A DNA stretch of 64,000 nt from Candidatus Nanoarchaeia archaeon (GCA_028713895.1 JAQTNH010000001.1:181808-245807); one strand, 5' to 3'; numbered from the stretch's first letter, positions 9,788 to 36,473 are shown. Notes: generated by a model from the sequence alone, not told the origin. Numbers and translations: made by a program.

Positions 9788-10594
9788 TTAGAATTCGTCA
9801 AGCGGGCTTTTGATTTTTTTCAACTCAACATTTGAGACGTGAGTATACCGTTCTGTCGTATTGAGCGATGAGTGCCCAAGCAGGGTTTGTATCTTTCTTA
9901 TGTCAACCCCGTTTTCCAGCAGGTGCGTGGCGTACGAATGCCTAAGTGTGTGCGGGTGGACATTTTTTGTGATGCCTGCGCGCGCTGCAGCGAGAGTCAC
10001 GACTTTTTGTATTGCGCGCTTTGAGAGCTGCTTTCCTTTTGTTGCAAAGATGTATTCAGACGGATACTTTCTGTTCTGCAGATACTCTTTCAGATTTGTG
10101 ATGAATTTGTCAGAAAGAAGAATCATCCTGTCCTTTGCGCCCTTGCCGCTGCGCACCCATCCGGTTTTTTCCTCAAGCTCCAGGTCATTTATCTTCATGT
10201 TGATGCACTCGTTCAGGCGGATGCCTGTTGAGTAAATGAATTCAAGCATGAGCCTGTGCTTTTTGTTTTCAGTTAATTCAATCATGCGCCTGACTTCGTC
10301 TTTTGTGAGAACAACAGGCACCTGCTTTGGAATCTTAGGCGTCTTTATTGCAAAAGCTTTTTTCAGGACTTCGTTGTAAAAGAAAATCAGGGATGATTTT
10401 GCCAGGGCAAGTGTTGCATTTGAAACGCTGCGGCCAATCATGTCAGAAAGATAATTGCGGACATCGTTTTCATCAACAGCAACGGGCTCTTTTTTTATGA
10501 ATTCAAGAAACTTGCGGTTGTAGAACAGATAGGTTTTGATTGTTTCATTGCTCAAGCCGCGCAGGCGTAGTTCGGTTTCAAGCTGTTTTAACAT
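9788..10594 (-). CDS. xerA: Tyrosine site-specific recombinase (XerA/XerC/XerD family)
   Basis: Catalytic R...HxLRH...Y signature: HTLRHSYATHLLENGVDIRKIQTLLGHSSLNTTERYTHV. Confidence 0.85.
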   Translation of the reverse strand: MLKQLETELRLRGLSNETIKTYLFYNRKFLEFIKKEPVAVDENDVRNYLSDMIGRSVSNATLALAKSSLIFFYNEVLKKAFAIKTPKIPKQVPVVLTKDEVRRMIELTENKKHRLMLEFIYSTGIRLNECINMKINDLELEEKTGWVRSGKGAKDRMILLSDKFITNLKEYLQNRKYPSEYIFATKGKQLSKRAIQKVVTLAAARAGITKNVHPHTLRHSYATHLLENGVDIRKIQTLLGHSSLNTTERYTHVSNVELKKIKSPLDEF

Positions 10595-11935: not shown

Positions 11936-12409
11936 ATGATAATCAGAACAGCAAAAATAAAAGATTTGCCAGCTGTGCTTAAACTTGATTTAATGCTGAA
12001 AAAAGACCAGAACAGATACAACAAGAAGTATTTTGCACTTGCAGGTGAAAAGAGCCTGGTAAAAGAAACAAAAAAGTTCCTGAAAGGAAAACTAAACAGC
12101 AAAAAATCGCGCATTTTTATTGCAGAAGCGAATGGAAAAATAATAGGAATCTGCATGGCTGAACTTGAAAAGCGGCCGCCAATATTCAAATACAGGAACA
12201 ATGGTTTTATTGAATCAGTTTATGTCCTGCCTGTGTTCAGAGGAAAAGGAATTGGAACCCTGCTGCTCAAAAGCGCAATTAAATGGCTGAAAAAGAACAA
12301 GATGTCTTTTATCACGCTTGCAGTCCATGAGCAAAATATTCCTGCAATAAATGCCTATAAAAAATCCGGATTTGTTAATTTTTTCAATAAAATGCTGAAG
12401 GTGTTATGA
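11936..12409 (+). CDS. GNAT-family N-acetyltransferase
   Basis: Acetyl-CoA-binding motif VLPVFRGKGIGTLLL and a conserved NIPAINAYKKSGF tail. Confidence 0.8.
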   Translation: MIIRTAKIKDLPAVLKLDLMLKKDQNRYNKKYFALAGEKSLVKETKKFLKGKLNSKKSRIFIAEANGKIIGICMAELEKRPPIFKYRNNGFIESVYVLPVFRGKGIGTLLLKSAIKWLKKNKMSFITLAVHEQNIPAINAYKKSGFVNFFNKMLKVL

Positions 12410-15363: not shown

Positions 15364-15389
15364 TCCTTTTGTTTTCTTATTTTTGTTTT

Positions 15390-15589
15390 TTTTCACTCTG
15401 AAAAAGTTTAAAAGGCAGTATCCTCTCAATTTAAGACAGGGAAATGTTGATGGTTGAGGTGGAAAAATGAATTCTAAGGGAGAGAGCAGACTAAATTTAA
15501 TTCTAAACAGGTTCGGAGCGTCAAAAGCATCCGCATCACTGAAGATTTTCCTCGCACTCATCATTTTCGGCATAGCGTCAGCTTTCCTC
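15390..15589. repeat. Copy 1 of a ~200-bp duplicated promoter plus signal-peptide module
   Basis: Near-identical to 21856..22054. It carries the TATA box, the Shine-Dalgarno site GAGGTGG, and a first 41 codons identical between the two giant genes. Confidence 0.9.
15406..15412 (+). promoter_or_regulatory. TATA box (TTTAAAA) of giant surface protein gene 1
   Basis: AAAGTTTAAAAGG lies 55 nt upstream of the ATG. GAGGTGG at 15456..15462 is the Shine-Dalgarno site. Confidence 0.5.
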
Positions 15590-18500
15590 CTCGGCGTTGT
15601 CTTCGCAACACACAGCTATTCGCCAGCCCCGGCAACAGTTCCAAACTGGACAAGTTCATGCGGCAACAGTGACGAAGGTCCAGGACCTGGAGATGCAATG
15701 ATAAACCTGACAAAAAATATCACGCTGACAGCAACAGGCAATGACACTTCATATCTCAACTTAACGCTCCTCAACTCAACTTCAAATTATACAATCCAAG
15801 ACTTCCTCACATTCTACCCGGCAAGCACGCTTAGCTGTTTAAAATCATCAGACACTTTAATTGAATGCACCAACACAACTGCAAATGTTCTGGCAGGGAC
15901 TGGAATGACAGTCCAGTTTAATACATCAGTCAACAGGAGCAGGCTTTGCATGGCAAACGGGCTGGACATGTTTTATTGGAATATATCAACCCTGGACAAT
16001 GAAACCAGTTTTAATTCTACGATATTGATAGACAAATTTGATTCACAAAGCCCAATGCCTTCAGGCATGATGATAACATCAACCAAATACACAAACGGTT
16101 CAAATTGGTTTGTAACAAGCCCGTATGATCTAACAGTTCCAACCGGGACAGACGGGAGCGGTTCAGGAATAAACACAAGCTCATGCGTGTATACAACGAA
16201 TATGAGCGGAATGCCTACTGTATGGACTGCAGCTACGTATGCAGACCCCAACTGTACAAAAACAGGAATAACAATTGCAGACGGTGTTTTGCACCAATCA
16301 AGTTTAGCTGTATCTGACATTGCAGGCAACCGTGGCGGATCTGGCTCATTAGACATTTATGGAGACGCATTAGCTCCAACAATCACATGGAATTCCCTTG
16401 CCAGCGCATACAAATTAGGCACAATAGTCACGCTTAATGTAACAGCCGCAGACGCGGGCTCAGGAGTCAATACGTCTGCGTTCACATTTAATGTTTCCTG
16501 CACAGGCAGCTCAAACGGCTCGCTTGGCGCGCTAACATGCACGCCGGGCTTGGTTCCCAAATCAACAGAATGCACACAGGCCTGGACAGCCCCAGATGCA
16601 GTTGCAAACTGCAACATAACTGCAAACGCAACAGATGCCCTCGGGCAGACAAATACAAGCATCGCAAACCTGAACATTGACTTTGGATGCGGAGACAACA
16701 TTTCATATTCAACCGTATTAATCCATAATATAACAGGATGCACCTCAGGCGCTCTTTTCATCAATACAAGCAATTTAGTTCTTGACTGTGACGGATATGC
16801 AATAGATGGATACGATGTCACAGAATCAGGCATTGAAATATCCCCAGGAATCGAAAATGTAACAATCCAAGACTGCATTATTTGGGGTTACACTGACACA
16901 GCCGGCATCGTGGGCAACGGACTTGGCAGCAGCGACGGCAACATAAGCATAGTATCCAACACATTTTATAGCAATGGACAGGCTATCCTCTTGAATGCAA
17001 CTTCAGCAGGAAGCAATGATTATGACATAAACAGCAATATAATCTACAACACAACAGATGCTTCAAAGGATGCAATCTATGTTGGAAGTTCGGGAAACAT
17101 CTACATAGACCACAATGAGATTTATAGTGCTGCCAGCACAGGAATATCTGTGCGTTCATCAAGCGGAACAATCTCAAACAATGTAATAAACAACACTCTT
17201 ACAGGATACGGCATTTCAACAAATGCATTCGCAGGAGTTATAGAACTCAATAATGTTTCGTATGCAGAACGCGGAATCAATTATTTTGCATCAGGCCCCA
17301 TTGCGAACATTACAAACAACACTTTGAATATCAATGACTACGGATTATACATCTCTTCAAGCATGGACATATCAGTATGGCATAATAATGTATATAATAA
17401 TACTATGAATGTTCTTTCAACTAGCCCCATTGAATTGTCCTATAGCAGCGAAGGAAACTACTGGGGACACGATGGATGCCCTGTGTTCAGTGCAGGGATA
17501 GATTCAAACTCAGCAACTGTAATCGACAGCTACGCTTACAATACATCAAGCGGATGGCTGACAACAACACCAGCGTTCTGCGCGCCGCAAATAATTACAT
17601 TTGCAGATGTTTTCAGTGGCTTTGCATATGCGAACATAGGAATCGGAGAATCAATGGCGATGCCATTTGTTCTGGATGTTTATGTTAACATAACAAACAC
17701 AACACCAGCATGGGTGAATCTTACAGGAGCTGGCGGCAGTTTGTGCATGGAGAGCTATGCGCCTAATGTAATGCTCAGCTATGAGGATTTGGGAGACGGC
17801 CCTGTATTCAACGCAGAGTGCACATTAAACAAAACAATACTTGCAACGCTGGGTCCACAGCATAACCTGACTGCGGTGGCATACTATGTGTCGTCACCAG
17901 CTATAACAAACACACAAAATTTCACATTGAATTCTGACTTTGAACGCCCAGTTATGAACTTTGGATGGTGGGACACAACAGGCGGGGACGGAACTCCTGT
18001 AAAATTTGTAAGCCCTGAGAACATGTTTAACAGGCAGGACATATTTTTCTCGCCAACAGACAATGCCGTACGGATAAGAGTTAATGTAACAGACAACAGC
18101 GTAGTGTCGTATGTGGAAGCAAATATGACTTCGCTTGACAGCGCAATGGCACTGACAGGCGGAAACTGCAGCGGAGTTGTAAACCTTACAGGTGTCGGCG
18201 GAAATTTCTGGGAATACAACTGCAGCCTTGGAGGCTTCAACAGAACGTTCATACAGGATGTCCTGAACGGAGGCACATTCAGCCCGGTATTCGAAGGACA
18301 GACAGACGTACAGATAGCAGCACATGATGTATTCGGAAACCCGACTGCAATAGCGTATAATACTTCTGAAATCACACCAGTGGAATGCGTGGGATACGTA
18401 GAGGGGCAATGCATGTCACTTGTTACACCGATAGTCATACATGACATTGAAGTGATGGGGCCGACAAGCATCAGCGCCATACATGACCAGATAGAAGAAT

Positions 18501-21500
18501 TTTCTGGCTGCATATGGGGAGCAAACTGCAGCGCATGCGGACCAGGAGAAACCCCTGAGACAGACGGATGTTATGAAGCTGCACAGCTTTGCTTCCTGTT
18601 TGGTTCGCAGACAACAAACTTCAGCAATGTTGCAAATTTCTCGGATGTAAACTTTTCGGTTGAGATGCAGGTAAACATGTCATGCCTTGAAGAAGCTGGA
18701 GGAATTGTGACTGACATACCCATGCCGACTGGACACACAACAATGATGAAAGTGAATTTCAGCAGCATTGACTTCAACAGCCAGGAGACTGCTGGAAAAC
18801 TTGCACAGCTTCCAGAAAACCTCAACGTGTACATAAGCCCGGCAGGAACTTTCGGGGACTCGTACATTATGCTGAACTCAAGCTACTTTGAGATGCTGAA
18901 TGCTTCCGCAACAATCGTGTTCTATCACTTGCCATTCATATCAGCGCCGTATGTTTACGGAATTGGGGGCGCAGTGACTGCCACACCGACAATAACATGG
19001 GCGCCATTCAATGATGACTTGTGGGACGGACGACCTGCTGGAAACCTTACATTCAATGTAGGTGGGTTCTCAGGATACGAGATAACAGACTCAATAAAGC
19101 CGACAGTGGTGATTGATGCGCCGGCAGCAGGCACAAACCTGACTGTTAACACAACATGGCTTAACATGACTTTGAACGGGACAGGCACACAGATAAGCAA
19201 TGTGCTTGTGTATGATGGAGCAGTACTTAAATACAATTACACAGCAAATGAAAGCATGTGCCTGAATGTAACGCTCGGTTCAGAGCTGTTCTTCTGCAAC
19301 ATTTCGCTTACAGGGCTGGCAGACGGAACGCACACACTGACTGTCCAGGCATTTGACTTTGGCGGAAACGAATCGCCGGGAAACAACAACACCACAACGC
19401 GGGCATTTATAATTGACTCGAGTGCGCCAAACATCACGATAACAGCGCCTGTGTCAAATGCAGTGCTTAACGCAGCAATGCTTCCGTACAATATAACCGG
19501 AACAGCAGCTGACAATTATGTGGGCATATCAAATATAACGTGGTATATAGACAATGCTGAACAGGGCACAGTTGACATGTCGCCACTGCCATTGTGGTGG
19601 ACAAGCTGGAACCCCTCAGACGGAGTGTACAACATTACTGCGCAGTCATGCGACTATTTCAGCAACTGCGCAAATGCGACAGCAGTAACACTGATAACAG
19701 TTGATGCGCTAAAACCAAAAATCTCAATAACCTACCCGACAAACAACCTTAACATCTCGTCATCAACGCTGGTAGTGAACACAACGACAAACGAGACAAA
19801 CCCGAACAGGCTTCTTGTTTATGTCAACGGTGCATTAACAAACAACACAACATACTCAAGCGGGGAACAAAACAACACAATTGTGCTTACCCTTGCAGAC
19901 GGAACATATGTTGTGTATGCAACTGCAACAGATACGGCAGGAAACTCCAATACAACATCCAATTACACTGTAATGATAGACACGACTGCGCCGACACTGA
20001 ACATTATAACACCAACTAATAATTCATATCAAAACCGCAACAATACAATAGTTAACTGGACAGTGAACGATACAAACTACAACTACACTTACATTGAACT
20101 TTACAATTCAACAGACGACCTCGCAGCGAACGGCACAGTCCCGTATACGTTTGGGCCATACACTTATCCGAACTATATAGTAAATTGGACAGATGTGCCA
20201 GACGAGGTTTACAGGCTTGTATTAGTTGCATACGACATAGTGGCAAATAACAGGACAGAAACGGTTTATAATATTACAGTTGACACGACTGCGCCAAAGA
20301 TTGCGGTATCGTACCCGGCAAACAACAGCAACTCAACCAGCTCGACTGTGACAATAAATGTGACAACAAACGAAACAAATGCAAACTCAATGAAACTGTA
20401 TGTTGGTGGCTTGCTTGTCAACACGACAAGTTACACGGCAGGAAACAACAAGGTAAAAACATTCACTGTCAGCATGGCAGACGGCAACAGAACATTCTAT
20501 GCGAATGCAACAGATTTGGCTGGGAACTACAATGCAACAGGAACGTATTACATAATAGTTGACACGACTGCGCCGGCAATGAGCAGCATATTTGCTGATA
20601 CAATCACAAATGAAAGCGCAGACATACACGTGACAACAAACGAGATAGCAAATTGCTCTGTTGATTTCGGAACTGATACGTCATACGGCTCGGTTGCAAG
20701 CTCAGTAAGCGGAAGCGGAGCGCTAAGCCTCGCAATTCCAAGCGCAGCCCAGGGAACATTGTATTATTACAGATGGAACTGCACTGATGTCTACGGAACC
20801 AGCGGAGTAAGCGCAGGATACACGTTCACAACAGCGAACTACCAGACAGATACGATTGTCAACACAACAACCACAAACATGACATTCAACTTTACAGAGG
20901 ACGGAACCAATACGACAAATGCAGGCGTTGAGATTTCGCTCAATGAAACAATTGATGCGACTGTCAAAATTGCAAAGGGAATAGCCCCGACTGCAAATTT
21001 CAGCGCGTCCGGCATAACAGGACTTGGAACGTACTACACAATTGAGTCAGATGAAATCAACAGCACAAATGCCGAGTGGCTGATGATAAAGCTGTATTAT
21101 GAGGACTCGCAGGTGCCAATCGGGATAAATGAATCCACACTCAGGCTGTACTGGTACAACACAACAAGTTCAGCATGGGAAATCATAACACCTGGCGGAG
21201 TTGATACAGTAAACAACTATGTCTGGGGTAACACAACGCACTTCAGCGAGTACACAATCGCGGGAGCAGCAGACACAGAGGTAACAGCACCAACATCACC
21301 AGGCGGCTCAAGCGGAGGAATACCTTCTGCGGGACTGACTCATGAAGTCAATCTTGACGTGCAGGTGACATACACGCAGGCAGGAATGGCTGTGAAGGAC
21401 AAGATAAACTTCACTCTTAACGGAGAGAAGCACGTGCTAACCCTTTCGTCAATGATGATTGACCAGATTGTTGTTGACATAAGCTCGCTTTCGCAGAGAA

Positions 21501-21826
21501 TAACAGTGGACATGAACACGCCAAAAGCAGTTGACCTTGACGGAGACGGGATAAACGACCTTGAACTGAAACTGACAAAGATAATAGCTGGACGGGCGGA
21601 TTTGACGCTTACAAAGATTACAGCGACAGGAGCTGCAGCAGAGCCTGAAGAGGTTACAGTTGAAACGCCGGCAGAAGTTCCGACAGAAGAACCGCAGCCA
21701 ACAGTGACTGTAATCAGCGAAGAAATCAAGGCAGTTTCAGGCAACTACGGGATATACATTGTAGCTGCAATAGCCTTGCTGGGAATCATAGCAGTAACGT
21801 ATTACGTGTTCTTCAGAAAGAGGTAA
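15467..21826 (+). CDS. Giant cell-surface protein (2119 aa): signal/anchor N-terminus, parallel beta-helix (NosD/pectin-lyase-like) repeats, Ig-like repeats, fibronectin-III-like domain, Ca-binding DxDGDGxxD loop, C-terminal TM anchor
   Basis: Hydrophobic N-terminus. Beta-helix repeats are visible as NVINNT / NNTLNIN. About 5 tandem ~95-aa repeats end in DTTAP. The C-terminus is YIVAAIALLGIIAVTYYVFFRKR. The protein is full of N-x-S/T sequons. Confidence 0.9.
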   Translation: MNSKGESRLNLILNRFGASKASASLKIFLALIIFGIASAFLLGVVFATHSYSPAPATVPNWTSSCGNSDEGPGPGDAMINLTKNITLTATGNDTSYLNLTLLNSTSNYTIQDFLTFYPASTLSCLKSSDTLIECTNTTANVLAGTGMTVQFNTSVNRSRLCMANGLDMFYWNISTLDNETSFNSTILIDKFDSQSPMPSGMMITSTKYTNGSNWFVTSPYDLTVPTGTDGSGSGINTSSCVYTTNMSGMPTVWTAATYADPNCTKTGITIADGVLHQSSLAVSDIAGNRGGSGSLDIYGDALAPTITWNSLASAYKLGTIVTLNVTAADAGSGVNTSAFTFNVSCTGSSNGSLGALTCTPGLVPKSTECTQAWTAPDAVANCNITANATDALGQTNTSIANLNIDFGCGDNISYSTVLIHNITGCTSGALFINTSNLVLDCDGYAIDGYDVTESGIEISPGIENVTIQDCIIWGYTDTAGIVGNGLGSSDGNISIVSNTFYSNGQAILLNATSAGSNDYDINSNIIYNTTDASKDAIYVGSSGNIYIDHNEIYSAASTGISVRSSSGTISNNVINNTLTGYGISTNAFAGVIELNNVSYAERGINYFASGPIANITNNTLNINDYGLYISSSMDISVWHNNVYNNTMNVLSTSPIELSYSSEGNYWGHDGCPVFSAGIDSNSATVIDSYAYNTSSGWLTTTPAFCAPQIITFADVFSGFAYANIGIGESMAMPFVLDVYVNITNTTPAWVNLTGAGGSLCMESYAPNVMLSYEDLGDGPVFNAECTLNKTILATLGPQHNLTAVAYYVSSPAITNTQNFTLNSDFERPVMNFGWWDTTGGDGTPVKFVSPENMFNRQDIFFSPTDNAVRIRVNVTDNSVVSYVEANMTSLDSAMALTGGNCSGVVNLTGVGGNFWEYNCSLGGFNRTFIQDVLNGGTFSPVFEGQTDVQIAAHDVFGNPTAIAYNTSEITPVECVGYVEGQCMSLVTPIVIHDIEVMGPTSISAIHDQIEEFSGCIWGANCSACGPGETPETDGCYEAAQLCFLFGSQTTNFSNVANFSDVNFSVEMQVNMSCLEEAGGIVTDIPMPTGHTTMMKVNFSSIDFNSQETAGKLAQLPENLNVYISPAGTFGDSYIMLNSSYFEMLNASATIVFYHLPFISAPYVYGIGGAVTATPTITWAPFNDDLWDGRPAGNLTFNVGGFSGYEITDSIKPTVVIDAPAAGTNLTVNTTWLNMTLNGTGTQISNVLVYDGAVLKYNYTANESMCLNVTLGSELFFCNISLTGLADGTHTLTVQAFDFGGNESPGNNNTTTRAFIIDSSAPNITITAPVSNAVLNAAMLPYNITGTAADNYVGISNITWYIDNAEQGTVDMSPLPLWWTSWNPSDGVYNITAQSCDYFSNCANATAVTLITVDALKPKISITYPTNNLNISSSTLVVNTTTNETNPNRLLVYVNGALTNNTTYSSGEQNNTIVLTLADGTYVVYATATDTAGNSNTTSNYTVMIDTTAPTLNIITPTNNSYQNRNNTIVNWTVNDTNYNYTYIELYNSTDDLAANGTVPYTFGPYTYPNYIVNWTDVPDEVYRLVLVAYDIVANNRTETVYNITVDTTAPKIAVSYPANNSNSTSSTVTINVTTNETNANSMKLYVGGLLVNTTSYTAGNNKVKTFTVSMADGNRTFYANATDLAGNYNATGTYYIIVDTTAPAMSSIFADTITNESADIHVTTNEIANCSVDFGTDTSYGSVASSVSGSGALSLAIPSAAQGTLYYYRWNCTDVYGTSGVSAGYTFTTANYQTDTIVNTTTTNMTFNFTEDGTNTTNAGVEISLNETIDATVKIAKGIAPTANFSASGITGLGTYYTIESDEINSTNAEWLMIKLYYEDSQVPIGINESTLRLYWYNTTSSAWEIITPGGVDTVNNYVWGNTTHFSEYTIAGAADTEVTAPTSPGGSSGGIPSAGLTHEVNLDVQVTYTQAGMAVKDKINFTLNGEKHVLTLSSMMIDQIVVDISSLSQRITVDMNTPKAVDLDGDGINDLELKLTKIIAGRADLTLTKITATGAAAEPEEVTVETPAEVPTEEPQPTVTVISEEIKAVSGNYGIYIVAAIALLGIIAVTYYVFFRKR
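19090..20570 (+). repeat. About 5 tandem ~285-nt (95-aa) Ig-like domain repeats inside giant gene 1
   Basis: Repeating (D)TTAP linker followed by V/I-rich beta strands, e.g. PKISITYP..., PTLNIITP..., PKIAVSYP... Confidence 0.6.
20840..21640. repeat. Copy 1 of an ~800-bp duplicated C-terminal module
   Basis: About 90-95% identical to 26628..27420. It encodes TANYQTDTIVNTTTTNMTFNF...LRLYWYN...VDLDGDGINDLELKLTKI. Confidence 0.85.
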
Positions 21827-21862
21827 GCCTCCTTTCTTTTTTATTTTTTTATTATTTTCACT
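21827..21862 (+). terminator. Oligo-T tract (archaeal-type terminator) after giant gene 1
   Basis: TCCTTTCTTTTTTATTTTTTTATTATTTTCAC directly follows the stop codon. Confidence 0.4.
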
Positions 21863-22054
21863 CTAATAAAGTTTAAAAGGGAGCATGCTCTATTCTAAAG
21901 ACAGGGAAATGTTGATGGTTGAGGTGGAAAAATGAATTCTAAGGGAGAGAGCAGACTAAATTTGATTCTAAACAGGTTCGGAGCGTCAAAAGCATCCGCA
22001 TCACTGAAGATTTTCCTCGCACTCATCATTTTCGGCATAGCGTCAGCTTTCCTC
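21856..22054. repeat. Copy 2 of the duplicated promoter plus signal-peptide module
   Basis: See 15390..15589. The TATA box is at 21872..21878. Confidence 0.9.
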
Positions 22055-25000
22055 ATCTATGGAGTTTATGCCATAGACTTAAGGCACATCAGCGATGGCA
22101 ATGCAATCGCAGCAGATAACGAGACAATCGAAATTCCTGCGGAAGAAATTGCAGCCGAAGTTTCAGAAGCCACAGCACTTCCTGAAAAGCCCCAGGCAGT
22201 ATTTGCTGACAGGCCGGGTTTAACGCCGAAAGAAAAAGATATCAATGCAAAAAACACATTTGAAAGAAAATTTCCGTCTTTAGCTAACGAGTATATCCTG
22301 TTCCTTAAAAGCCCGATGAAGGTTGAAGGGCCATCCATTGCGTCTGTAACAAATTCAGAACAGCTGCAGAAAACAATGTCTGACAGGGGAATCAAGACGT
22401 ATAATACAATACCTGAACTCAATGCAATCATTGCCTATGTGCCTGATTCGCAAATTGACTCAGTAAATAGGATTCCTGGAGTGGAAAATGCTGAGCCCAT
22501 CAAATATTTTCATTCCCTGCTTAATGTAAGCATACCCACAATAAATGCGGATGATGTATGGGATTTGGGATACAATGGCACAGGCGTTGATGTCTGCATA
22601 ATTGACACGGGCGTTGACAAGTGGCATCCAAGCATCAAGCAGGCAACCGCGTCTGCAGATTTCACAACACACGACTGGTGCATTGACCTGGGCTTACAGA
22701 ATCATGGCTATGACGAGGGAGTATTCCAGTCAGTTGTCGGCTCAAACAGACAGTTTAACATGTCGCTGAATGTAACAAACTCAACAATGAACTGGCTTGA
22801 AGTCGGAGTGACATCTTATTACAACGGCAACTGGAGCGGTGATGAGCAAAGGTATGACATGACAATCTTTTGGCCAAATAACACAAAAATAAATGACACA
22901 AATTCCATTCCAAATGCAAATATGCGCATTGACGATGACTTAAATTATTGGGCGGTTCTGAACCTTTCAATCGGCAGTGTAACCGGGCTTTATACAATCC
23001 AAATAGATGAGACAAACATCGGAACCAGCATGGATTACCCGCTTGTTATTTGGGGCTCAAATGTAACATGGCTGTACACTAACTTTTACGAATACAGCGG
23101 TTACATCTGCGATACATTTAACACAACATACTCAAATTTTAATCCATACGAATCAACTGACAGCGTCTTTAAGGACAGGCGCGCATTCAACAACATTGTT
23201 GCAAATGATGACGCTGGACACGGGACTCATGTAGCAGGAACAGTAGCAAGCAACAACACAACTTATGAAGGAGTTGCGCCCGGCGCAAACTTGTATATTG
23301 CAAAAGCTCTTGACATGTACGGGATGGGTACAACACCAGGAGTTATAGACGCAATACTCTGGTGCCAGAGCAAAGATGTTGATTTAATAAGCATGAGCCT
23401 TGGAGGAGCTGCAGGACAGGGATGCAATGATTCTGAAGTTGTAATTTTGGACTCTGTGGTTGCAGACAATATGCTCCCAATTATTGCCGCGGGCAATGAA
23501 GGAGAACATGGCGCAGTTACAATAGGCTCGCCCGGCTGTGCAAGAAATGTTTTGACAATCGGCGCAGTTAATGACAGCGATGTTATAGCATGGTTCTCAA
23601 GCCAGGGGCCGACAAACGACACAATGCCACGAATAAAACCTGAAGTTGTTGCGCCTGGTGTAGCAATCTATTCAACAATACCAACAGGCAGATGGGACAA
23701 TATGCAGGGGACATCAATGGCAACACCGCATGTTGCGGGTTTGGCTGCCCTGATCAGGCAGGCGCATCCAACATGGACGCCTGGACAGATTAAAGCGGCA
23801 ATCATAAATTCCGCCAACCAGACAAAAGTTGGGTTTGGAGCGCATAATACTACATATGGATATGGAAGAGTTGATGCACTTGAAGCAGTCAATGACACGT
23901 GGGTGGCATCAATAAATATGACAAACGACACAATAGACAGCACTTTAAAAATGAATCTTACAGCTGCAAAAAACCTGAAGGTAACAATATACTGGGAGGA
24001 AAACGCATCAGACAGCCACAGCAGGATATATCTTAACCTGACAAACAGCAGCGGTGATATTGAGGACGAATCAAGTGACAGAAATGAAACAATACAGCTG
24101 GCTGCAGTAGCTTCAGCAGCAGCTGGCGAATACCACATAAGAGTAATCGGGGACCATGTACACGGTACAAAGATTGTCTGGATTGCAACAAATGTACCTT
24201 TATCCGAATCTATACCTCCTGTGCTGACGATTGTTTCGCCGCAGAACGCAACTTACGGAGCGTCTGTTGAGTTCAATGTTTCCACAAACGAGGCAGCAAG
24301 CTTATGCGTTTCCAGCCTGGACGGGGCAGCAAATGTCTCGATGGGCAACACTTCGTTAACTGCATGGAACTACACAAGCTCAGGCATGACAAGCGGCCTG
24401 CACAATGTAACGTTCTACTGCAATGACACTTCAGGAAACTGGAACCTTACACCTGTACGCTATTTCACATCTGACATCAGTGCGCCGGTTGTAACAATAA
24501 TATCACCGCAGGACACAACTTACGGAAAGACAGTTGCATTCAATGTTTCCACAAGTGAAGCGGCAGCGTGGTGCAACATCACAATGGATGGAATTGTAAA
24601 CATTTCGATGAGCAACACTTCAGCAACGTCATGGGCATACACAAATTCCAGCATGATAGACGGAGGGCACAATGTGACTTTCAGGTGCAATGATTTGTAC
24701 AACAACACAGGCACAAATCTGACCAATTTCACAGTTGATGCGGTTGAACCTTTGATAACAATTGTTGTGCCACAAAACACAACTTATGGAATCAACGTCA
24801 CATTTAACATAACCACAAATGAAGCAGCGTCAGCCTGTAATTTCAGCCTGGACGGGGCTGCAAATGTCTCAATGACAAATATTTCAACAACTGCGTGGGG
24901 ATACTTTAAGACAAACATGGCTGAGGTGCTGCATAACCTAAAGTTTTACTGCACTGACCTGTACGGCAACACAAATATAAGCGCCACTGTGTACTTTTCA

Positions 25001-27601
25001 GTCAACACGAGCTTCTTAGCAACAATAACATATCCTGCAAACCAGCCGTATAATACTGTAAACATGACTGCCAATGTCTCCACAACTGCAAATGCAGATG
25101 TGTGCCTGATAAGCATTGACGGCGGAGCAAATGCTTCGATGGGCAATTCAACTCCAACAGCATGGAACTACAGCATGATAGACTTGTCAGAAGACGTACA
25201 CAATCTCAGCGTGTGGTGCAATAACAGCGGCGGAACCCTTGCAACAACAGCAACAGGCTCATTCACAATTGATTTGACAGAACCGATGATAACGATGGTT
25301 GCGCCCGGAAACACAACGTACGGCACAACTGTGGTATTCAATGCAACAACAAATGAAGCAGCGTCATGGTGCAACTTCAGCCTGGACGAAACGACAAATG
25401 TGAGCATGACCGGAGCTGCAGCTTCATGGGCATACACAAATTCAAGCATGACAAATGGAGGGCACAATGTGACTTTCTACTGCAGCGACTTGGCAGGGAA
25501 CGCCAACAACAGCGCAATAAGAATTTTCACAGTTGATGCGATTTTACCTGTGATAACAATAAATTCCCCTGCAAATACGACATACAATACAACCACGACT
25601 TTGTTTAATGTTACAGCAAACGAAAATGCTTCATGGTGCAGGTATAGCCTGGACGGGGCTGCAAATGTCTCAATGACCAACAGCTCGATGACATCATGGT
25701 TTAACTCCACCACTGTAGCAGAGAACAACCATAATGTTGTGTTCTACTGCAGCGATGTTTACAGCAACATCAATTCTACAACTGCGCTGTACTTCATCAC
25801 AGACACAACAAAGCCGGTGATAGCAATAGTCTCGCCAGGCAACACAACGTACGCCAACACAACAATCTGGTTCAACATAACAGTAACAGAAACGCGCCCG
25901 GACAACTGCGTCTACAGCCTGGACGAAGCAGCAAATGCGACAATGACAAGGAGCGGAAGCGCATGGAATGCTTCAAAGAATGACTTTAGCGGAGAAACAC
26001 AGCACAACATAACATATTACTGCAATGATACAGCCGGAAATGTGAATGGCAGCGCAATGAGATACTTTGTAGTTGATACTGTCGCGCCGCGCGTTACGAT
26101 ACTCTTGCCGCTGAATAACACAAAATTCAATAACCAATATGTCAATTTCAGCGTAAATGCGTCTGACGCCAACATTTTACAGCTCAAGATGATAGAAGAC
26201 AATTATGTAGCGCAGACAGTGAATCTTTCCAGCTCAGGAATAACTAATGTAACACTGGACATCGGCCCTGGAACGCATGTAATAAAAGCGAATGTCACGG
26301 ACAGCGCAGGAAATTACAATTTAACTGACAGCACCATAGTTTTGATGGATACCATAGCGCCGGTAATGTCAGGCATCAGCGAAGAAGACATAAATGACAC
26401 CTGGGTAACGTGGCTGGTAACAACAGATGAAAATGCAACCTGTTTTGTAGAGTATGGCACCGACACAGGATATGGAAGCACAACAGGGAGTTCAACTGGA
26501 GAAGGTTCGCATGAACATACTTTAGCTGGGATTGATGCAGCAACGCTTTACCACTACAGATGGAACTGCACTGATACATACAACAACAGCGCAGTAAGCA
26601 GCGATTACACATTCATAACAGCAAACCACCAGACAGATACGATTGTCAACACAACAACAACAAACATGACATTCAATTTCACAGAGGACGGAACAAATGT
26701 AACAAGTGCAAAGATTGAGATTTCGCTCAATGAAACAATTGATGCGACTGTCAAAGTTACAAAAGAAATCACTCCGACTGCAAATTTCAGCGTGTCCGGC
26801 ATAACCTTGATTGGAACGTACTACACAATTGAGTCAGATGAGATTAACTCGACAAATGCCGAGTGGCTGATGATAAAGCTGTACTATGAAGACTCGCAGG
26901 TGCCAATCGGGATAAATGAATCCACATTAAGACTGTACTGGTACAACGCAACAAGTTCAGCATGGGAATTGGTTACTCCTGGCGGGGTTGACACAGGGAA
27001 CAACTATGTATGGGGCAACACAACGCACTTCAGCGAATATGCAATCGGTGGAGCAGCAGACACAGAGGAAGTAACACCAACATCACCAGGCGGCTCAAGC
27101 GGAGGAATACCTTCTGCGGGACTGACTCATGAAGTCAATCTTGACGTGCAGGTGACATACACGCAGGCAGGAATGGCTGTACGGGATATGATAAACTTCA
27201 CTTTGAACAGAGAGAAGCACGTGCTAACCCTCACTTCAATGATGCTGGATCAGGTTGTAGTTGACATAAGTTCGCTTTCGCAGAGAATAACAGTGGACAT
27301 GAACACGCCAAAAGCAGTTGACCTTGATGGAGACGGGATAAACGACCTTGAACTGAAACTGACAAAGATAATATCTGGACGGGCTGATTTGACGCTTACA
27401 AAGATTACAGCGACAGGAGAAACAGCAACACCTGAAACAGCTGCAACTCAAGCGCCTGCAGAGGCACCAGCAGAGGTTTCTACAGAGCAGCCAACAGGAA
27501 TCCAGGCGGTTTCAAGCAACTACGGAGTATACATTGTAGCTGCAATCGCACTGGCAGGGCTTGGAGTATTGATATATTACGTGTTCTTCAGAAAGAGGTA
27601 A
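21932..27601 (+). CDS. Giant surface-anchored S8 (subtilisin-like) serine peptidase (1889 aa) with about 8 Ig-like repeats and a shared C-terminal module plus TM anchor
   Basis: S8 catalytic triad: Asp in VCIIDTGVD, His in HGTHVAGTVAS, Ser in GTSMATPHVAGLAALI. The N-terminus is identical to gene 1. Eight ~95-aa repeats each carry a conserved Cys pair. The protein is dense in sequons. The C-terminal anchor is IVAAIALAGLGVLIYYVFFRKR. Confidence 0.9.
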   Translation: MNSKGESRLNLILNRFGASKASASLKIFLALIIFGIASAFLIYGVYAIDLRHISDGNAIAADNETIEIPAEEIAAEVSEATALPEKPQAVFADRPGLTPKEKDINAKNTFERKFPSLANEYILFLKSPMKVEGPSIASVTNSEQLQKTMSDRGIKTYNTIPELNAIIAYVPDSQIDSVNRIPGVENAEPIKYFHSLLNVSIPTINADDVWDLGYNGTGVDVCIIDTGVDKWHPSIKQATASADFTTHDWCIDLGLQNHGYDEGVFQSVVGSNRQFNMSLNVTNSTMNWLEVGVTSYYNGNWSGDEQRYDMTIFWPNNTKINDTNSIPNANMRIDDDLNYWAVLNLSIGSVTGLYTIQIDETNIGTSMDYPLVIWGSNVTWLYTNFYEYSGYICDTFNTTYSNFNPYESTDSVFKDRRAFNNIVANDDAGHGTHVAGTVASNNTTYEGVAPGANLYIAKALDMYGMGTTPGVIDAILWCQSKDVDLISMSLGGAAGQGCNDSEVVILDSVVADNMLPIIAAGNEGEHGAVTIGSPGCARNVLTIGAVNDSDVIAWFSSQGPTNDTMPRIKPEVVAPGVAIYSTIPTGRWDNMQGTSMATPHVAGLAALIRQAHPTWTPGQIKAAIINSANQTKVGFGAHNTTYGYGRVDALEAVNDTWVASINMTNDTIDSTLKMNLTAAKNLKVTIYWEENASDSHSRIYLNLTNSSGDIEDESSDRNETIQLAAVASAAAGEYHIRVIGDHVHGTKIVWIATNVPLSESIPPVLTIVSPQNATYGASVEFNVSTNEAASLCVSSLDGAANVSMGNTSLTAWNYTSSGMTSGLHNVTFYCNDTSGNWNLTPVRYFTSDISAPVVTIISPQDTTYGKTVAFNVSTSEAAAWCNITMDGIVNISMSNTSATSWAYTNSSMIDGGHNVTFRCNDLYNNTGTNLTNFTVDAVEPLITIVVPQNTTYGINVTFNITTNEAASACNFSLDGAANVSMTNISTTAWGYFKTNMAEVLHNLKFYCTDLYGNTNISATVYFSVNTSFLATITYPANQPYNTVNMTANVSTTANADVCLISIDGGANASMGNSTPTAWNYSMIDLSEDVHNLSVWCNNSGGTLATTATGSFTIDLTEPMITMVAPGNTTYGTTVVFNATTNEAASWCNFSLDETTNVSMTGAAASWAYTNSSMTNGGHNVTFYCSDLAGNANNSAIRIFTVDAILPVITINSPANTTYNTTTTLFNVTANENASWCRYSLDGAANVSMTNSSMTSWFNSTTVAENNHNVVFYCSDVYSNINSTTALYFITDTTKPVIAIVSPGNTTYANTTIWFNITVTETRPDNCVYSLDEAANATMTRSGSAWNASKNDFSGETQHNITYYCNDTAGNVNGSAMRYFVVDTVAPRVTILLPLNNTKFNNQYVNFSVNASDANILQLKMIEDNYVAQTVNLSSSGITNVTLDIGPGTHVIKANVTDSAGNYNLTDSTIVLMDTIAPVMSGISEEDINDTWVTWLVTTDENATCFVEYGTDTGYGSTTGSSTGEGSHEHTLAGIDAATLYHYRWNCTDTYNNSAVSSDYTFITANHQTDTIVNTTTTNMTFNFTEDGTNVTSAKIEISLNETIDATVKVTKEITPTANFSVSGITLIGTYYTIESDEINSTNAEWLMIKLYYEDSQVPIGINESTLRLYWYNATSSAWELVTPGGVDTGNNYVWGNTTHFSEYAIGGAADTEEVTPTSPGGSSGGIPSAGLTHEVNLDVQVTYTQAGMAVRDMINFTLNREKHVLTLTSMMLDQVVVDISSLSQRITVDMNTPKAVDLDGDGINDLELKLTKIISGRADLTLTKITATGETATPETAATQAPAEAPAEVSTEQPTGIQAVSSNYGVYIVAAIALAGLGVLIYYVFFRKR
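24210..26350 (+). repeat. About 8 tandem ~270-290-nt Ig-like repeats, each with 2 conserved Cys, inside giant gene 2
   Basis: Repeating pattern P(V/L)(I/V)T(I/M)VSPxNTTYG...NV(S/T)TNEAA(S/A)xC...SLDGAANVSM...HNVTFYC(N/S)D... Confidence 0.7.
26628..27420. repeat. Copy 2 of the duplicated C-terminal module
   Basis: See 20840..21640. Confidence 0.85.
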
Positions 27602-27640
27602 AACCTCCTTTCTTTTTTATTTTATTTTTATTGCAAAATA
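27602..27640 (+). terminator. Oligo-T tract after giant gene 2
   Basis: AACCTCCTTTCTTTTTTATTTTATTTTTATTG. The same sequence follows gene 1. Confidence 0.4.
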
Positions 27641-27670
27641 TTTATAATGCCACCTAAATTAGTTCTTGGC

Positions 27671-28522
27671 ATGAACCAGCATGAAAAAGACGTGGAAAAT
27701 TTCTATTCAAAAGGCGCGCGCAGGGTTGTGAAGGAAGGCGAGAATTTCAAGCATTTCTCTGAGGGGTTTATCTCATTCGGATACTGGGAGCCTGGGGACA
27801 CTTATGTTGACGCTGCAAAGCGCCTGCTCAGGTTCTTCATTGACAACAGCGGAATAAAAAAGGCAGGCAGGATTTTGAATGTCGCATGCGGATACGGGGC
27901 TGAGTCATTCGCGTACTTCAAGAAGTTCAGGCCAGGCGAGCTGATTGGGATAGACATAACCCAGGCGCATGTTGATTACGCAAACTGGAAAGCAAAAGAG
28001 CTTGGTGTTGCGAAAAAAGTAAAGTTCGTTCATGGCGATGCGGTTGCGCTGGATTTCCCTGACGCAAGCTTCTCGCACATACTCGGGATAGAAGGGCCTG
28101 CGCATTTCAACACGCGCGAAAAATTCTTCAAGTCAGCAGGGCGGGTGCTTAAAAAGAAGGGGGAACTTCTGCTCACTGACATAATTTTGGGAGAAAAATT
28201 CAGAAAATGGAACCCAGTCCACCAGATTGTTCTAAGGGCAGGAGCAAAAGGATGGGTTGTTCCAATCATAAACGGCATCAAGGAAAAGGAATACGTGAAG
28301 CAGCTTGAAGGCGCGGGATTTGAAATTGTTTTTTTGAAGCGCATCGGCGACAAAGTGTTCCCTGGCTATGCAGGGCATTTTACAGAAGAAAAAAGAAAAG
28401 AGAACAGGAAGCGAATGAGCTTCTTTGCAGAACTGGGGCTTACAAAAATAGGAAGGATGCTCGGATACCTTTACAGGAAAGGGTTCATCGAGTACATCTA
28501 TGTAAAGGCGCGGAAGAAATAA
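27671..28522 (+). CDS. Class I SAM-dependent methyltransferase, RebM-like, paralog 2
   Basis: About 80% amino-acid identity to 8913..9782. An ~80-nt DNA stretch is near-identical (28049..28130 versus 9310..9390). The start MNQHEK aligns with paralog 1. The alternative start is 27647. Confidence 0.75.
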   Translation: MNQHEKDVENFYSKGARRVVKEGENFKHFSEGFISFGYWEPGDTYVDAAKRLLRFFIDNSGIKKAGRILNVACGYGAESFAYFKKFRPGELIGIDITQAHVDYANWKAKELGVAKKVKFVHGDAVALDFPDASFSHILGIEGPAHFNTREKFFKSAGRVLKKKGELLLTDIILGEKFRKWNPVHQIVLRAGAKGWVVPIINGIKEKEYVKQLEGAGFEIVFLKRIGDKVFPGYAGHFTEEKRKENRKRMSFFAELGLTKIGRMLGYLYRKGFIEYIYVKARKK

Positions 28523-35819: not shown

Positions 35820-36473
35820 ATGAAGAATATGACAAACAAATACCTTTTTTTTGCTGAAAAACTGGACGAGCTTTCAGAATTGTGTAATGACAAAGCCCTG
35901 GAAATGGGGGCGCGCAGCAAAAATCTTGCGCATATACTGTTAAGGGAACAGACGCCAGAATTTTACAGAATCTTTGTTGACATGGCACGTCTGGGATACA
36001 AGTACTCAATACCAAGCAGCACAGGTATTCTACTGAATTTTGTGGGCACAAAAGCCAAGGACAAAATTGTGACTCACATAAACCCCCAAAAAGCAATTCC
36101 CTGCGCTTTATTTTGCAAGAGCTTAGAATGGAGACACATGGACTATTTTCTTAAAAAATTAAAATGCACCCCATACGGACATGAAACAGAAATTTACTAT
36201 GTCGGGGGCCCAGAGATTATGGAAGCAATTGGTATTGCTGTTGAGAAAGGAGGGCCTTCATGCGAAGAGCGTTTTAATGACGGCCACAGGCTCTGCTTTG
36301 ATGCGAATAATATTTACAAGCTTAACAAACAAGACTTTGTGGGTTACCTTATGGATATGGTTACAGAAAAGGGGAAACACAATTATTTTGAATTAAGAAA
36401 CGCGGCTTTCCAGGCAGCAGGCACGAAAGAGCTCGGGATAGAGGCTGCGATAGAACTGATGATGGAAGGATAG
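35820..36473 (+). CDS. ORFan operon gene 4 (217 aa)
   Basis: 12-nt gap. Confidence 0.5.
   Translation: MKNMTNKYLFFAEKLDELSELCNDKALEMGARSKNLAHILLREQTPEFYRIFVDMARLGYKYSIPSSTGILLNFVGTKAKDKIVTHINPQKAIPCALFCKSLEWRHMDYFLKKLKCTPYGHETEIYYVGGPEIMEAIGIAVEKGGPSCEERFNDGHRLCFDANNIYKLNKQDFVGYLMDMVTEKGKHNYFELRNAAFQAAGTKELGIEAAIELMMEG

Follow-up and report, generated by a model that had tools for sequence, protein, structure and literature searches.

Two adjacent giant genes lie on the + strand of the window (the whole stretch of DNA that was analysed, 64,000 nucleotides, with positions counted from its first letter), and the two open reading frames of the original prediction, 2119 and 1889 amino acids (aa) long, were recovered exactly as described. 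Both reading frames are unbroken across 12 kb, about 1.2% of a roughly 1-Mb genome, and the spacer of 105 nt between the genes contains the start of the second copy of a block shared by their 5' ends. The proteins have been deposited as MDD5181910/11 and MDD5239044/45 under 'Candidatus Nanoarchaeia archaeon' and their present labels say no more than 'Ig-like domain-containing protein' and 'S8 family serine peptidase'. A second public MAG contig, JAQTPB010000006.1, matches at 100% identity over 25.6 kb, from 12034 to 37601; the two assemblies that cover the locus may share a study or sample series. The HisRS encoded in the window shows no more than 55% identity to sequences from DPANN MAGs, and a Xer-like tyrosine recombinase gene is found 5 kb upstream of the pair, at 9788-10594. 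The genes and the blocks that they share are as follows.

15467-21826, + strand: gene 1, 2119 aa, with 115 N-glycosylation sequons
21932-27601, + strand: gene 2, 1889 aa, with 104 sequons
15368-15592, + strand: 5' shared block, copy 1, matching 21833-22057 by blastn
15407-15413, + strand: archaeal-type BRE/TATA element (TTTAAAA) of copy 1, a putative promoter; the copy also has a T-rich spacer
from about 15433, + strand: predicted 5'UTR of copy 1, from the putative transcription start
about 15456-15461, + strand: Shine-Dalgarno site GAGGTG of copy 1, ahead of the start codon (ATG, 15467) and leader codons 1-41/42
21833-22057, + strand: 5' shared block, copy 2, with TTTAAAA at 21872, reaching codon 41/42 of gene 2
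20768-21856, + strand: 3' shared block, copy 1, of mosaic identity
26555-27632, + strand: 3' shared block, copy 2, in gene 2, aligned to copy 1 by blastn
21827-21860, + strand: oligo-T tract of gene 1 (GCCTCCTTTCTTTTTTATTTTTTTATTATTTT), a putative terminator
27602-27632, + strand: equivalent oligo-T tract of gene 2, a putative terminator

Sequons occur in both proteins at a density of 5.4-5.5 per 100 aa, compared with 0-0.9 in the cytoplasmic proteins of the window. An extracellular location is indicated by this density together with an N-terminal hydrophobic leader and a C-terminal transmembrane (TM) helix, and both products are predicted to be giant cell-surface proteins, heavily N-glycosylated to judge by their sequons. 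The N-terminal half of the gene 1 product runs from an extended signal peptide through an uncharacterised N-terminal region and a parallel beta-helix to a 'stalk' conserved in the family (aa ~700-1205), and the C-terminal half is made up of about five Ig-like repeats, an FN3-like domain, a MAIN domain, a Ca-loop sandwich, a linker and the TM anchor. The gene 2 product begins with the same kind of signal peptide, followed by a pro-region, an S8 subtilase and Cys-pair Ig-like repeats, and continues with a further Ig-like unit and the same series from FN3-like domain through MAIN domain, Ca-loop sandwich and linker to TM anchor.

Searches with Pfam models identified Beta_helix (aa 489-646, nt 16931-17404) and Big_7/Big_13 in gene 1, and Peptidase_S8 (PF00082, E 1.9e-54, aa 216-645, nt 22577-23866) and Big_13 in gene 2, bearing out the beta-helix, S8 and Ig-like domains that had been predicted. 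The S8 triad and the oxyanion Asn of gene 2 are present in S8 order as D225 (IDTGV), H430 (HGTHV), N522 and S595 (GTSMATP), with an insert of ~200 aa separating Asp and His; on its sequence this head is a subtilase with an intact catalytic triad. The beta-helix head of gene 1 is probably glycan-binding or glycan-cleaving. A scan of the genome collection with the gene 2 head found no relatives. The Ig-like repeats of gene 1 number about five, as had been claimed (aa ~1208-1700, nt 19088-20566), a count that rests on four interior boundary motifs at 1208-1699 and a fifth start, near aa 1412, read by eye. Gene 2 was credited with eight Cys-pair repeats and has seven, with an 89-aa period at about nt 24197-26086 (first Cys at aa 792, second Cys of the last repeat at aa 1364), plus one extra Ig-like unit that lacks the Cys pair. 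That the central parts differ completely is true of the heads, but the Ig-rich C-terminal halves are distantly homologous; aligned over 1259-2119 of gene 1 the two proteins are 50% identical as a whole and 25-28% identical in separate HSPs of the Ig region.

The 5' ends were thought to share an identical block of ~200 bp. A shared block is present and codons 1-41 of the two genes encode identical peptides, but the similarity is not uniform and amounts to 92.5% over 226 nt (blastn, E 1e-90). The core of the block at 15433-15589 (157 nt at 99% identity) has a single mismatch, synonymous and at 15499, while the upstream portion, 15368-15432, has 17 mismatches at a constant offset of 6465 nt, and in both copies the TTTAAAA box falls in this less conserved portion. 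The window contains exactly two copies of a 40-mer taken from the core, where chance would give 0. Transcription is predicted to start at ~15433 in gene 1 and ~21898 in gene 2. The leader of both genes carries MNSKGESRLNLILNRFGASKASASLK, with the pattern ..SKASAxLK followed by the h-region, and is present on about 10 of the best 150 homologues. By inspection it consists of a polar n-region of 26 aa, a hydrophobic stretch from aa ~27 and a signal-peptidase-I-like V-F/Y-A at aa 45-47, so that the signal peptide of gene 1 covers aa 1-47 with predicted cleavage between VFA and T, and that of gene 2 has its predicted cleavage between VYA and I. A class III (type IV pilin-like) signal peptide, defined by a short basic n-region and a [KR][GA] cleavage site directly before the hydrophobic stretch, was rejected by inspection since the 26-aa polar n-region precedes the hydrophobic stretch.

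The 3' block proved to be longer and less alike than the ~800 bp at 90-95% originally proposed, with 85.3% identity over 1,093 nt (blastn, 20768-21856 against 26555-27632) that varies from 0.73 to 1.00 in 60-nt windows. Copy 1 has its start among the final FN3-like strands (aa 1768) and goes on through the MAIN domain, Ca-loop sandwich, linker, TM anchor and stop codon to the putative oligo-T terminator, and the C-terminal module (C-module) of the two proteins is 82-84% identical. The FN3-like domain, Ca-loop and C-terminal TM anchor assigned to the shared 3' end were located in both genes, and both stop codons are followed by CCTCCTTTCTTTTTTATTTT..., in agreement with the common oligo-T terminator that had been described. 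With promoter, 5'UTR, Shine-Dalgarno site and terminator all shared, the two genes probably therefore have the same expression signals. The features of the C-module are as follows.

20816-21286, + strand: MAIN (GAIN_B/ZU5-like) domain of gene 1, aa 1784-1940
21239-21247, + strand: predicted autoproteolytic motif of gene 1, H1925-F1926-S1927, cleavage expected between F and S
21338-21616, + strand: membrane-proximal beta-sandwich of gene 1, aa 1958-2050 (AF2 model, module strands 195-287)
aa 2023-2031 of gene 1, + strand: Ca-type loop DLDGDGIND, within that sandwich
21746-21814, + strand: C-terminal TM anchor of gene 1, aa 2094-2116, then RKR (predicted helix, module residues 331-355)
26603-27073, + strand: MAIN domain of gene 2, aa 1558-1714, in a module with 83% aa identity to that of gene 1
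27026-27034, + strand: predicted autoproteolytic motif of gene 2, H1699-F1700-S1701 (THFS at aa 1698)
27125-27403, + strand: membrane-proximal beta-sandwich of gene 2, equivalent to the gene 1 domain
27521-27589, + strand: C-terminal TM anchor of gene 2, aa 1864-1886

The main functional point of this C-terminal cassette is the MAIN domain. A domain with an HFSEY motif had been recognised and does exist, but its autoproteolytic GAIN/ZU5-like (MAIN) nature, to which the fold and the HFS motif point, was missed. Foldseek gave matches to ZU5 and GAIN, the modelled domain is a beta-sandwich of GAIN_B/ZU5 type, and HFS occupies the turn between strands 135-140 and 145-152. The order of parts is also that of MAIN proteins, with a leader (aa 1-47), a beta-helix or S8 head, an Ig/FN3 stalk, the MAIN domain and a TM helix. 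The H and S are invariant in alignment A3, and 129 of 173 copies have HFS or H-X-S/T (HFS itself in 110). A MAIN profile found nothing significant among PDB sequences, and a word-index protein search with it found only three archaeal-type fragments, this type of search being too insensitive for an N/T-rich family. Bacterial MAIN domains cut between the F and S of HFS and the fragments stay associated; the same N-to-C architecture has been described for MAIN proteins, and archaeal cases with a pectin-lyase-like beta-helix, ZU5 and, as here, a TM helix for anchor are included in the supplement, with its DPAM table (bioRxiv 10.64898/2026.05.12.724683). The fold alone is no proof of cleavage because ankyrin ZU5 domains share it yet stay uncleaved. 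Taking fold, motif and architecture together, both proteins are probably cleaved between the F and S of HFS.

The membrane-proximal beta-sandwich, in which the Ca-loop residues D260/D264/D268 (module numbering) are nearly invariant, would stay on the cell after the predicted cleavage, and in gene A of two related loci, L082 and L086, the Ca-loop domain and TM helix are present without MAIN. A disordered P/T/E-rich linker precedes the TM anchor and the tail of the protein reads ...NYGIYIVAAIALLGIIAVTYYVFFRKR, without PGF or LPXTG. A substrate of archaeosortase (PGF-CTERM) or sortase (LPXTG) was considered and rejected, no such signal being found by inspection or by the NCBIfam CTERM models (no match at E <= 0.1); among the best 150 homologues LPXTG is found in none, a PGF-like signal in one and a C-terminal hydrophobic run in 117. 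Exhaustive HMMER searching recovered the C-module from 1,683 cluster representatives, where it nearly always forms the extreme C-terminus of a protein 800-2,500 aa long. A word-index search with the module, again too insensitive for an N/T-rich family, returned two matches. At relaxed thresholds no Pfam or NCBIfam family covers the C-module, the only matches being a weak one to Pullul_strch_C and an FG-GAP loop match on the Ca-loop domain. The shared ends are family-wide sorting and anchoring modules, and variable middles framed by a common promoter and leader and a common C-terminal anchor module, as first proposed, are a real feature of the locus.

Comparison with related genomes, which the original prediction had recommended, revealed that the tandem layout and shared ends recur, in L082, L086, L089/L090, L124 and L147. 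The layout of L082 has a 105-nt spacer as here and that of L086 a 114-nt spacer. Shared ends are not obligatory, since the adjacent Ig-giant and S8-giant genes of L085 have no DNA blocks in common. Gene number varies from one (L083) to three among related loci and head content also varies between them, with an S8 partner recurring in L085 and L089/L090.

Divergence between the two genes varies sharply along their length. For the leader dS amounts to 0.034 and for the 3' block to 0.276 (dN 0.093, dN/dS 0.34), with saturation in the remainder. The 3' block contains an identical run of 106 nt with P = 5e-5, the value of the run-length test over all sites; with third codon positions only, the test gave 0.006. 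At aa 1768, in mid-domain, protein identity steps up from the 25-28% of the Ig-region HSPs to 83% in the C-module. Leaders from the same genome share 96-98% identity, those from different species 60% at most. The gene B leaders of L082 and L086 cluster with their paralogues and not with their positional orthologues; that of L082 is 98% identical to its own paralogue versus 88% to the L086 orthologue. Because synonymous divergence is mosaic and the leader trees of these sister loci are discordant with gene position, it looks as if gene conversion between the tandem copies, or unequal recombination, has kept the shared ends alike. Cassette shuffling or gene conversion had been suggested, and non-reciprocal recombination (gene conversion) fits the dS mosaic, the conserved promoter and UTR, the block edge in mid-domain and the grouping of the leaders better than protein-level constraint by itself.

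Purifying selection acting by itself, through the demands of export and anchoring or of a 5' regulatory RNA and with no recombination between the copies, is an unlikely explanation. Leader and C-module are conserved as protein throughout the family, the dN/dS of the 3' block is low enough to agree with constraint, and the gene A leaders of L082 and L086 are 97% identical (gene bodies 80-87%); conservation of the leader nucleotides could come partly from selection on translation-initiation or export signals. However, synonymous sites and the non-coding UTR and promoter are near-identical too, the step in protein identity is abrupt and lies inside a domain, and the leader phylogeny of L082 and L086 is at odds with gene position. 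Across these modules, orthologues from other species show differences of 40-50%. P0005, the orthologue of gene 1, has ~50% identity to it in the body and 52-64% in the C-module, where genes 1 and 2 share 82-84%. A structured RNA in the 5' block was rejected as its fold is no better than that of shuffled sequence (z = -0.56), and the sole match in an Rfam search was one tRNA, with none for the 5' block.

Programmed switching or antigenic variation, in which the identical ends would act as recombination sites for swapping or deleting heads, is less probable still, and this part of the original prediction has no support. The repeats would be adequate substrates for recombination (157 nt at 99% and ~1.1 kb at 85%, 6.5 and 5.8 kb apart), heads differ between related loci, one of which has a single gene, and there is the tyrosine recombinase gene upstream. 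Nevertheless, both are complete genes with separate promoters and terminators, there are no silent, partial or further copies in the 64-kb window and no inverted repeats or invertase sites around the promoter, and the two assemblies are identical across the locus. As the repeats are direct, crossing-over between them would delete or duplicate and not switch reversibly. The recombinase, being Xer-like and beside MnmA in relatives too, is probably a housekeeping enzyme.

It is very improbable that the arrangement is an assembly artefact, with collapsed or chimeric repeats making unrelated genes appear adjacent, even though the sequence comes from a metagenome-assembled genome, and short-read assemblers can be misled by repeats of 0.2-1.1 kb. 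The blocks are 85-99% and not 100% identical, with many differing positions, the frames are intact over 12 kb, and the same structure is found on two contigs, one of 36 kb from another MAG and one of at least 956 kb; the identity of the second contig and the same layout in relatives, including other species from other samples (L082, L086), argue that the locus is genuine. DGRs target DPANN surface proteins and DPANN genomes are rich in DGR targets. Targeted hypermutation of the C-terminal module, by a DGR or otherwise, would suit the clustering of 3' block mismatches in short patches but is the least probable reading of all, as no adenine specificity is seen among the substitutions (G>A 26, A>G 14, C>T 14, T>C 12, with others besides), both copies are long ORFs and not a template/variable repeat pair, and there is no reverse transcriptase among the Pfam-annotated neighbours.

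The reading preferred here, with a probability of roughly 0.7, is that of tandem paralogous giant surface-protein genes of MAIN-type architecture, in an uncultured DPANN (Nanoarchaeia) archaeon, whose ends have been homogenised by gene conversion. Each protein would be exported by a lineage-specific extended signal peptide of Sec type and would display its functional head, the beta-helix of gene 1 or the S8 subtilase of gene 2, on an Ig-like/FN3-like stalk, possibly in contact with a host or substrate. The MAIN domain would most likely cut its own chain between the F and S of the HFS turn, leaving an ectodomain of ~1,900 aa (gene 1) or ~1,700 aa (gene 2) clamped non-covalently on the last beta-strand of a stub, which would comprise a G/S linker, the small Ca-loop beta-sandwich, the P/T/E-rich linker and a single TM helix with its RKR tail. 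Because the hold on the stub would be non-covalent, force or denaturation could free the head from the cell. Homogenisation would have been most recent over the promoter-proximal transcript start and leader, and earlier and patchy over the 3' module.

A rather unlikely extension of the homogenisation reading is that the 5' and MAIN-anchor blocks serve as portable homology arms for the exchange, duplication and loss of heads, and that the subtilase may also process or release its neighbour. Such arms would fit the varying heads carried on the same ends, the gene number of one to three and the recurring S8 partner, with nothing implied about how frequent or adaptive exchange might be. If true, an episymbiont with a ~1-Mb genome would possess an inbuilt means of re-tooling its force-releasable host-contact proteins.

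DPANN archaea, which live attached to other cells, devote a large share of their very small genomes to giant surface proteins of unexplained mechanism. Placement in the MAIN family offers a concrete one, self-cleavage between F and S of HFS followed by the force-releasable display of protease and beta-helix heads, and would extend the family to Nanoarchaeia with a different anchor (Ca-loop domain and TM helix). The homogenised ends provide a clean small case of concerted evolution in an archaeal symbiont, and a warning to annotators and assemblers that such loci hold near-identical repeats of 0.2-1 kb. The outcome is a refined annotation of a kind of locus already known, and current ideas are not overturned.

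Among known systems, the SPEARE proteins of Nanohaloarchaeota resemble the present pair in being DPANN proteins with a Sec signal, a giant Ig/FN3-rich ectodomain and a membrane anchor, and have been proposed to act in host contact (PMC10266531). As described in that source, which cites Hamm et al. 2019, they are the products of single genes, 5-9 thousand aa long, with a VirB4/TraG-like ATPase domain that is lacking here. A MAIN/HFS module like the present one is not known from reports on SPEARE. MAIN proteins such as B. subtilis YfkN (Brogan & Rudner) have the same order of signal peptide, enzymatic or adhesion domains, GAIN_B-like sandwich and anchor, and are likewise very large, with HFS in the turn before the last strand (bioRxiv 10.64898/2026.05.12.724683). 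Unlike those anchored by sortase/LPXTG or SLH, the proteins here have a TM helix preceded by an extra Ca-loop beta-sandwich, and they differ from described MAIN proteins in their DPANN host, very dense sequons, lineage-specific leader and tandem members with homogenised ends. The likeness rests on fold, motif and architecture, cleavage in the archaeal branch being predicted only.

The eukaryotic GAIN domains of adhesion GPCRs and PKD1 and the ZU5/FIIND domains of PIDD, UNC5CL, NLRP1 and CARD8 have the same H-X-S/T site between the last two strands, and Nup98 also uses HFS. These GAIN/ZU5 proteins likewise carry large adhesion-type ectodomains upstream, and non-covalent association after cleavage is the shared model; sequence identity to their domains is only 9-13%. 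In contrast to eukaryotic GAIN, the present modules lack a helical GAIN_A subdomain and a 7TM signalling unit and end in a single TM helix with a 3-residue tail, and a signalling role through a tethered agonist is therefore unlikely. In Gram-positive bacteria, YSIRK-type signal peptides and LPXTG anchors frame the variable passengers of surface proteins, and tandem paralogues are homogenised by gene conversion. The present locus differs from these families in its membrane helix without sortase, its unrelated leader motif and its domain of life, but has in common with them conserved export and anchor ends, around unrelated middles, that evolve in concert.

The two neighbouring open reading frames have exactly the sizes of the original prediction, and blastn comparison of one locus with the other returned two collinear matches.

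Genes and the DNA blocks that they share (identities from blastn)
15467-21826, + strand: gene 1, ORF of 2119 aa
21932-27601, + strand: gene 2, ORF of 1889 aa
15368-15592 versus 21833-22057: 5' block, 92.5% identity over 226 nt (E 1e-90)
20768-21856 versus 26555-27632: 3' block, 85.3% identity over 1,093 nt

The genes are separated by a spacer of 105 nt. The 5' block had been described as ~200 bp of identical sequence; a TATA-type box and the codons to 41 are indeed shared, but identity is not uniform, with a single, synonymous difference (at 15499) in the core at 15433-15589 and 17 mismatches, at a constant offset of 6465 nt, in the ~65 nt preceding it. Each copy has a TTTAAAA box 60 nt upstream of the ATG, and near-identity begins close to the presumed archaeal transcript start, 20-25 nt past the TATA box; it stops at codon 41/42, a few residues short of where signal peptidase is predicted to cut (VFA↓T and VYA↓I). 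The 3' block begins within an FN3-like domain and is longer and less alike than the ~800 bp at 90-95% first estimated, with identity per 60-nt window ranging from 0.73 to 1.00; it continues past the stop codon into a CCTCCTTTCTTTTTTATTTT tract common to both genes, the putative oligo-T terminator of the original prediction. A 40-mer taken from the 5' core is present exactly twice in the 64 kb, where chance would give none. There is no further copy of either protein within the 64-kb window. The claim that the central parts differ completely holds for the heads (the variable N-terminal functional parts), but the C-terminal halves, rich in Ig-like domains, are distant homologues, with separate HSPs 25-28% identical.

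Both proteins are deposited as 'Candidatus Nanoarchaeia archaeon' from two MAGs, the longest contig being 956 kb, and the HisRS of the window has ≤55% identity to any match among 185,579 species genomes, DPANN MAGs being the best. It is very unlikely that an assembly artefact lies behind tandem genes with such similar ends, because JAQTPB010000006.1, a 36-kb contig from the second MAG, shows full identity to the window over 12034-37601, the two copies of each block have diverged at many positions and the tandem layout is also present in other species. All eight differences between window and contig fall within 59 nt (11975-12033) at the start of an acetyltransferase gene, followed by 25.6 kb of identity, and reflect either a hotspot of local variation or an effect of the contig end.

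Domain searches with Pfam bore out the predicted heads, finding a right-handed beta-helix (aa 489-646) with Big_7/Big_13 Ig-like domains in gene 1 and Peptidase_S8 (aa 216-645, E 2e-54) with Big_13 repeats in gene 2. In gene 2 the S8 triad is complete and the oxyanion residue is in place (D225, H430, N522, S595). Asp225 and His430 are separated by a sequon-rich insert of ~200 aa (22604-23221), for which (aa 225-430) there was no Pfam match. About five Ig-like repeats lie upstream of the FN3-like domain in gene 1, as predicted, whereas the 89-aa repeats of gene 2, each with a Cys pair, number seven and not eight. N-X-S/T sequons reach 5.4-5.5 per 100 residues in both proteins against 0-0.9 in the cytoplasmic proteins of the window, and K and R are scarce. 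With the N-terminal hydrophobic leader and C-terminal TM helix, these features argue for extracellular, membrane-anchored proteins that are probably heavily N-glycosylated. Pilin-type and sortase/archaeosortase signals are absent from both.

No Pfam or NCBIfam model covers the C-terminal cassette. Searching 1.84 billion representatives exhaustively with HMMER turned up 1,683 relatives of its protein, the C-module (29 at <1e-30), almost all of them at the extreme C-terminus of proteins of 800-2,500 aa, and a hydrophobic helix forms the C-terminal end in 117 of the 150 best homologues. The AlphaFold model, for which 20 homologues were used, shows a beta-sandwich (module residues ~27-172) followed by a G/S linker, another, small sandwich with a nearly invariant D-x-D-G-D-G-x-x-D loop (195-287), a disordered P/T/E-rich linker and a TM helix. 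Its fold relatives, each with its tabulated value, were Ankyrin ZU5 (11.3), CD97 GAIN (10.3), BAI3 GAIN (10.2), CELSR1 (8.9), UNC5B (8.8), the CARD8/NLRP1 FIIND (8.0-8.4) and Nup98 (4.6). On the modelled fold, the beta-sandwich belongs to the cis-autoproteolytic sandwich family. The 'HFSEY' domain of the original prediction thus stands as a conserved feature but is reinterpreted, HFSEY being a catalytic-type motif of a GAIN/ZU5-like sandwich. H and S of HFS are invariant in a diverse alignment, H-X-S/T is found in 129 and HFS in 110 of 173 domain copies, and the motif lies in the tight turn joining the penultimate to the last strand. Cleavage in GAIN, FIIND and PIDD takes place in the turn between these strands.

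Large S8 subtilase genes lie directly downstream of giants of this type in distant relatives (L085, 14915-19777; L089, 16367-20761; L090, 16366-20760), an adjacency given as without shared DNA blocks; its recurrence suggests that protease and adhesin are functionally paired and not neighbours by chance. Gene A of two related loci (L082, 4736-9895; L086, 4547-9886) has the family leader, Ca-loop sandwich and TM anchor without the self-cleaving domain, so the anchor sub-module serves with and without it. Three homologues (P0025, P0059, P0142) have a second such sandwich in which the His is missing and the final residues are PGFSYFA, EGFSVFA or PGLSYFA. This presumably resembles archaeal 'PGF-pre-PGF'-type domains, which hints that the latter are non-cleaving relatives of the fold.

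Most recently Brogan and Rudner (May 2026, bioRxiv 10.64898/2026.05.12.724683) named microbial GAIN_B-like domains 'MAIN' and reported that those of B. subtilis YfkN and other bacteria are cut F↓S within HFS, the fragments remaining associated and the ectodomain releasable. Their ~15,000 proteins run from signal peptide through adhesion or enzymatic domains and MAIN to a surface anchor, and their supplement includes archaeal proteins with a pectin-lyase-like beta-helix, 'ZU5' and a TM helix. Genes 1 and 2 fit this architecture in fold, motif position and domain order. Each protein would likely be exported and then cleave itself at HF↓S (F1926↓S1927 in gene 1, F1700↓S1701 in gene 2), leaving a glycosylated ectodomain (~1,900 and ~1,700 aa, respectively) clamped on the last beta-strand of a stub made of the Ca-loop sandwich, linker and TM helix with an RKR tail, from which force could release the head.

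The same unusual leader (M-x-S-...-SKASAxLK, an h-region, then a [VI][YF]A site) recurs in the closest homologues and is found in ~10 of the 150 best; since it is shared in this way, it reads as a lineage-specific extended signal peptide and no local peculiarity of the locus.

Shared blocks in related loci
L082 (JGI): two genes in tandem, their spacer likewise 105 nt; 5' block of 213 nt (94%), 3' block of 362 nt (73%)
L086 (sister of L082): two genes in tandem; 5' block of 212 nt (86%), 3' block of 328 nt (81%)
L089/L090: large genes in tandem; 3' patch of 144 nt (92-94%)
L124: large genes in tandem; 3' block of 999 nt (83%)
L147: large genes in tandem; 5' block of 115 nt (84%)
L085: Ig-giant adjoining S8-giant; no shared blocks
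L083: single gene; not applicable

The gene ends are far closer within genomes than between them. Leaders are 98% identical within the window and 96% within L082, against ≤60% between species, and the C-module of gene 1 is 82-84% identical to that of gene 2 and 52-64% to that of P0005, its head-orthologue (~50% identical over the body). Synonymous divergence (dS) amounts to 0.034 for the leader and 0.276 for the 3' block, where dN/dS is 0.34; elsewhere it has reached saturation. Divergence in the 3' block is patchy, with an identical run of 106 nt (P = 5e-5) and 43 codons without a third-position change (P = 0.006). In L082 the leader of gene B shares 98% identity with its paralogue, 96% with gene A of L086 and only 88% with gene B of L086, its orthologue by position, a pattern that points directly to gene conversion. 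The data are best read as repeated gene conversion or unequal exchange among tandem family members, atop constraint at the protein level. Crossing-over between the direct repeats could plausibly delete or duplicate. Recombinational switching, also proposed originally, is not supported, as no silent cassettes were found in the 64-kb window. DGR-type mutagenesis was rejected, the substitution spectrum not being A-biased and no reverse transcriptase appearing among the Pfam-annotated neighbours, as was the idea that the 5' block encodes a structured RNA (z = -0.56, no Rfam hit).

Two SAM-methyltransferase paralogues (8913-9782 and 27647-28522; direct orientation, 75% identity over 772 nt) bracket an ~18-kb segment containing a tyrosine recombinase (9788-10594, - strand), an HD protein, the acetyltransferase, a Cas4-like PD-(D/E)XK nuclease, a SIMPL/DUF541 protein and both giant genes, and may mark the edge of a duplicated or mobile segment. 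The stretch at 36000-50000 is low in GC (0.36-0.40 against 0.42-0.47 elsewhere) and looks like a genomic island or integrated element; it holds inverted paralogous ORFs (36799-37330 and 39989-40511, 76% identical), 95-nt direct repeats (87%; 42858-42951 and 43725-43819) around a metallo-beta-lactamase-fold gene (42974-43717) and several HTH/nucleotidyltransferase genes. A 303-aa ORF at 50570-51481 matches the C-terminal domain of the Fe-only hydrogenase large subunit (Pfam E 1e-39), unexpected in a ~1-Mb DPANN genome.

In place of two vague annotations the analysis offers a mechanism that is specific and can be tested, and it records sorting modules evolving in concert in a reduced archaeal genome. 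The likeness to the YSIRK/LPXTG surface-protein logic of Gram-positives is by analogy only, and the nanohaloarchaeal SPEARE giants differ in being much larger and having a VirB4-like ATPase domain. Judged by sequence and modelled fold, the locus works like the MAIN-domain surface proteins and, by the criteria that can be tested, is a member of their family, from which it is set apart by an anchor of Ca-loop sandwich plus TM helix, a DPANN host, a dedicated extended signal peptide and two members in tandem that evolve in concert.
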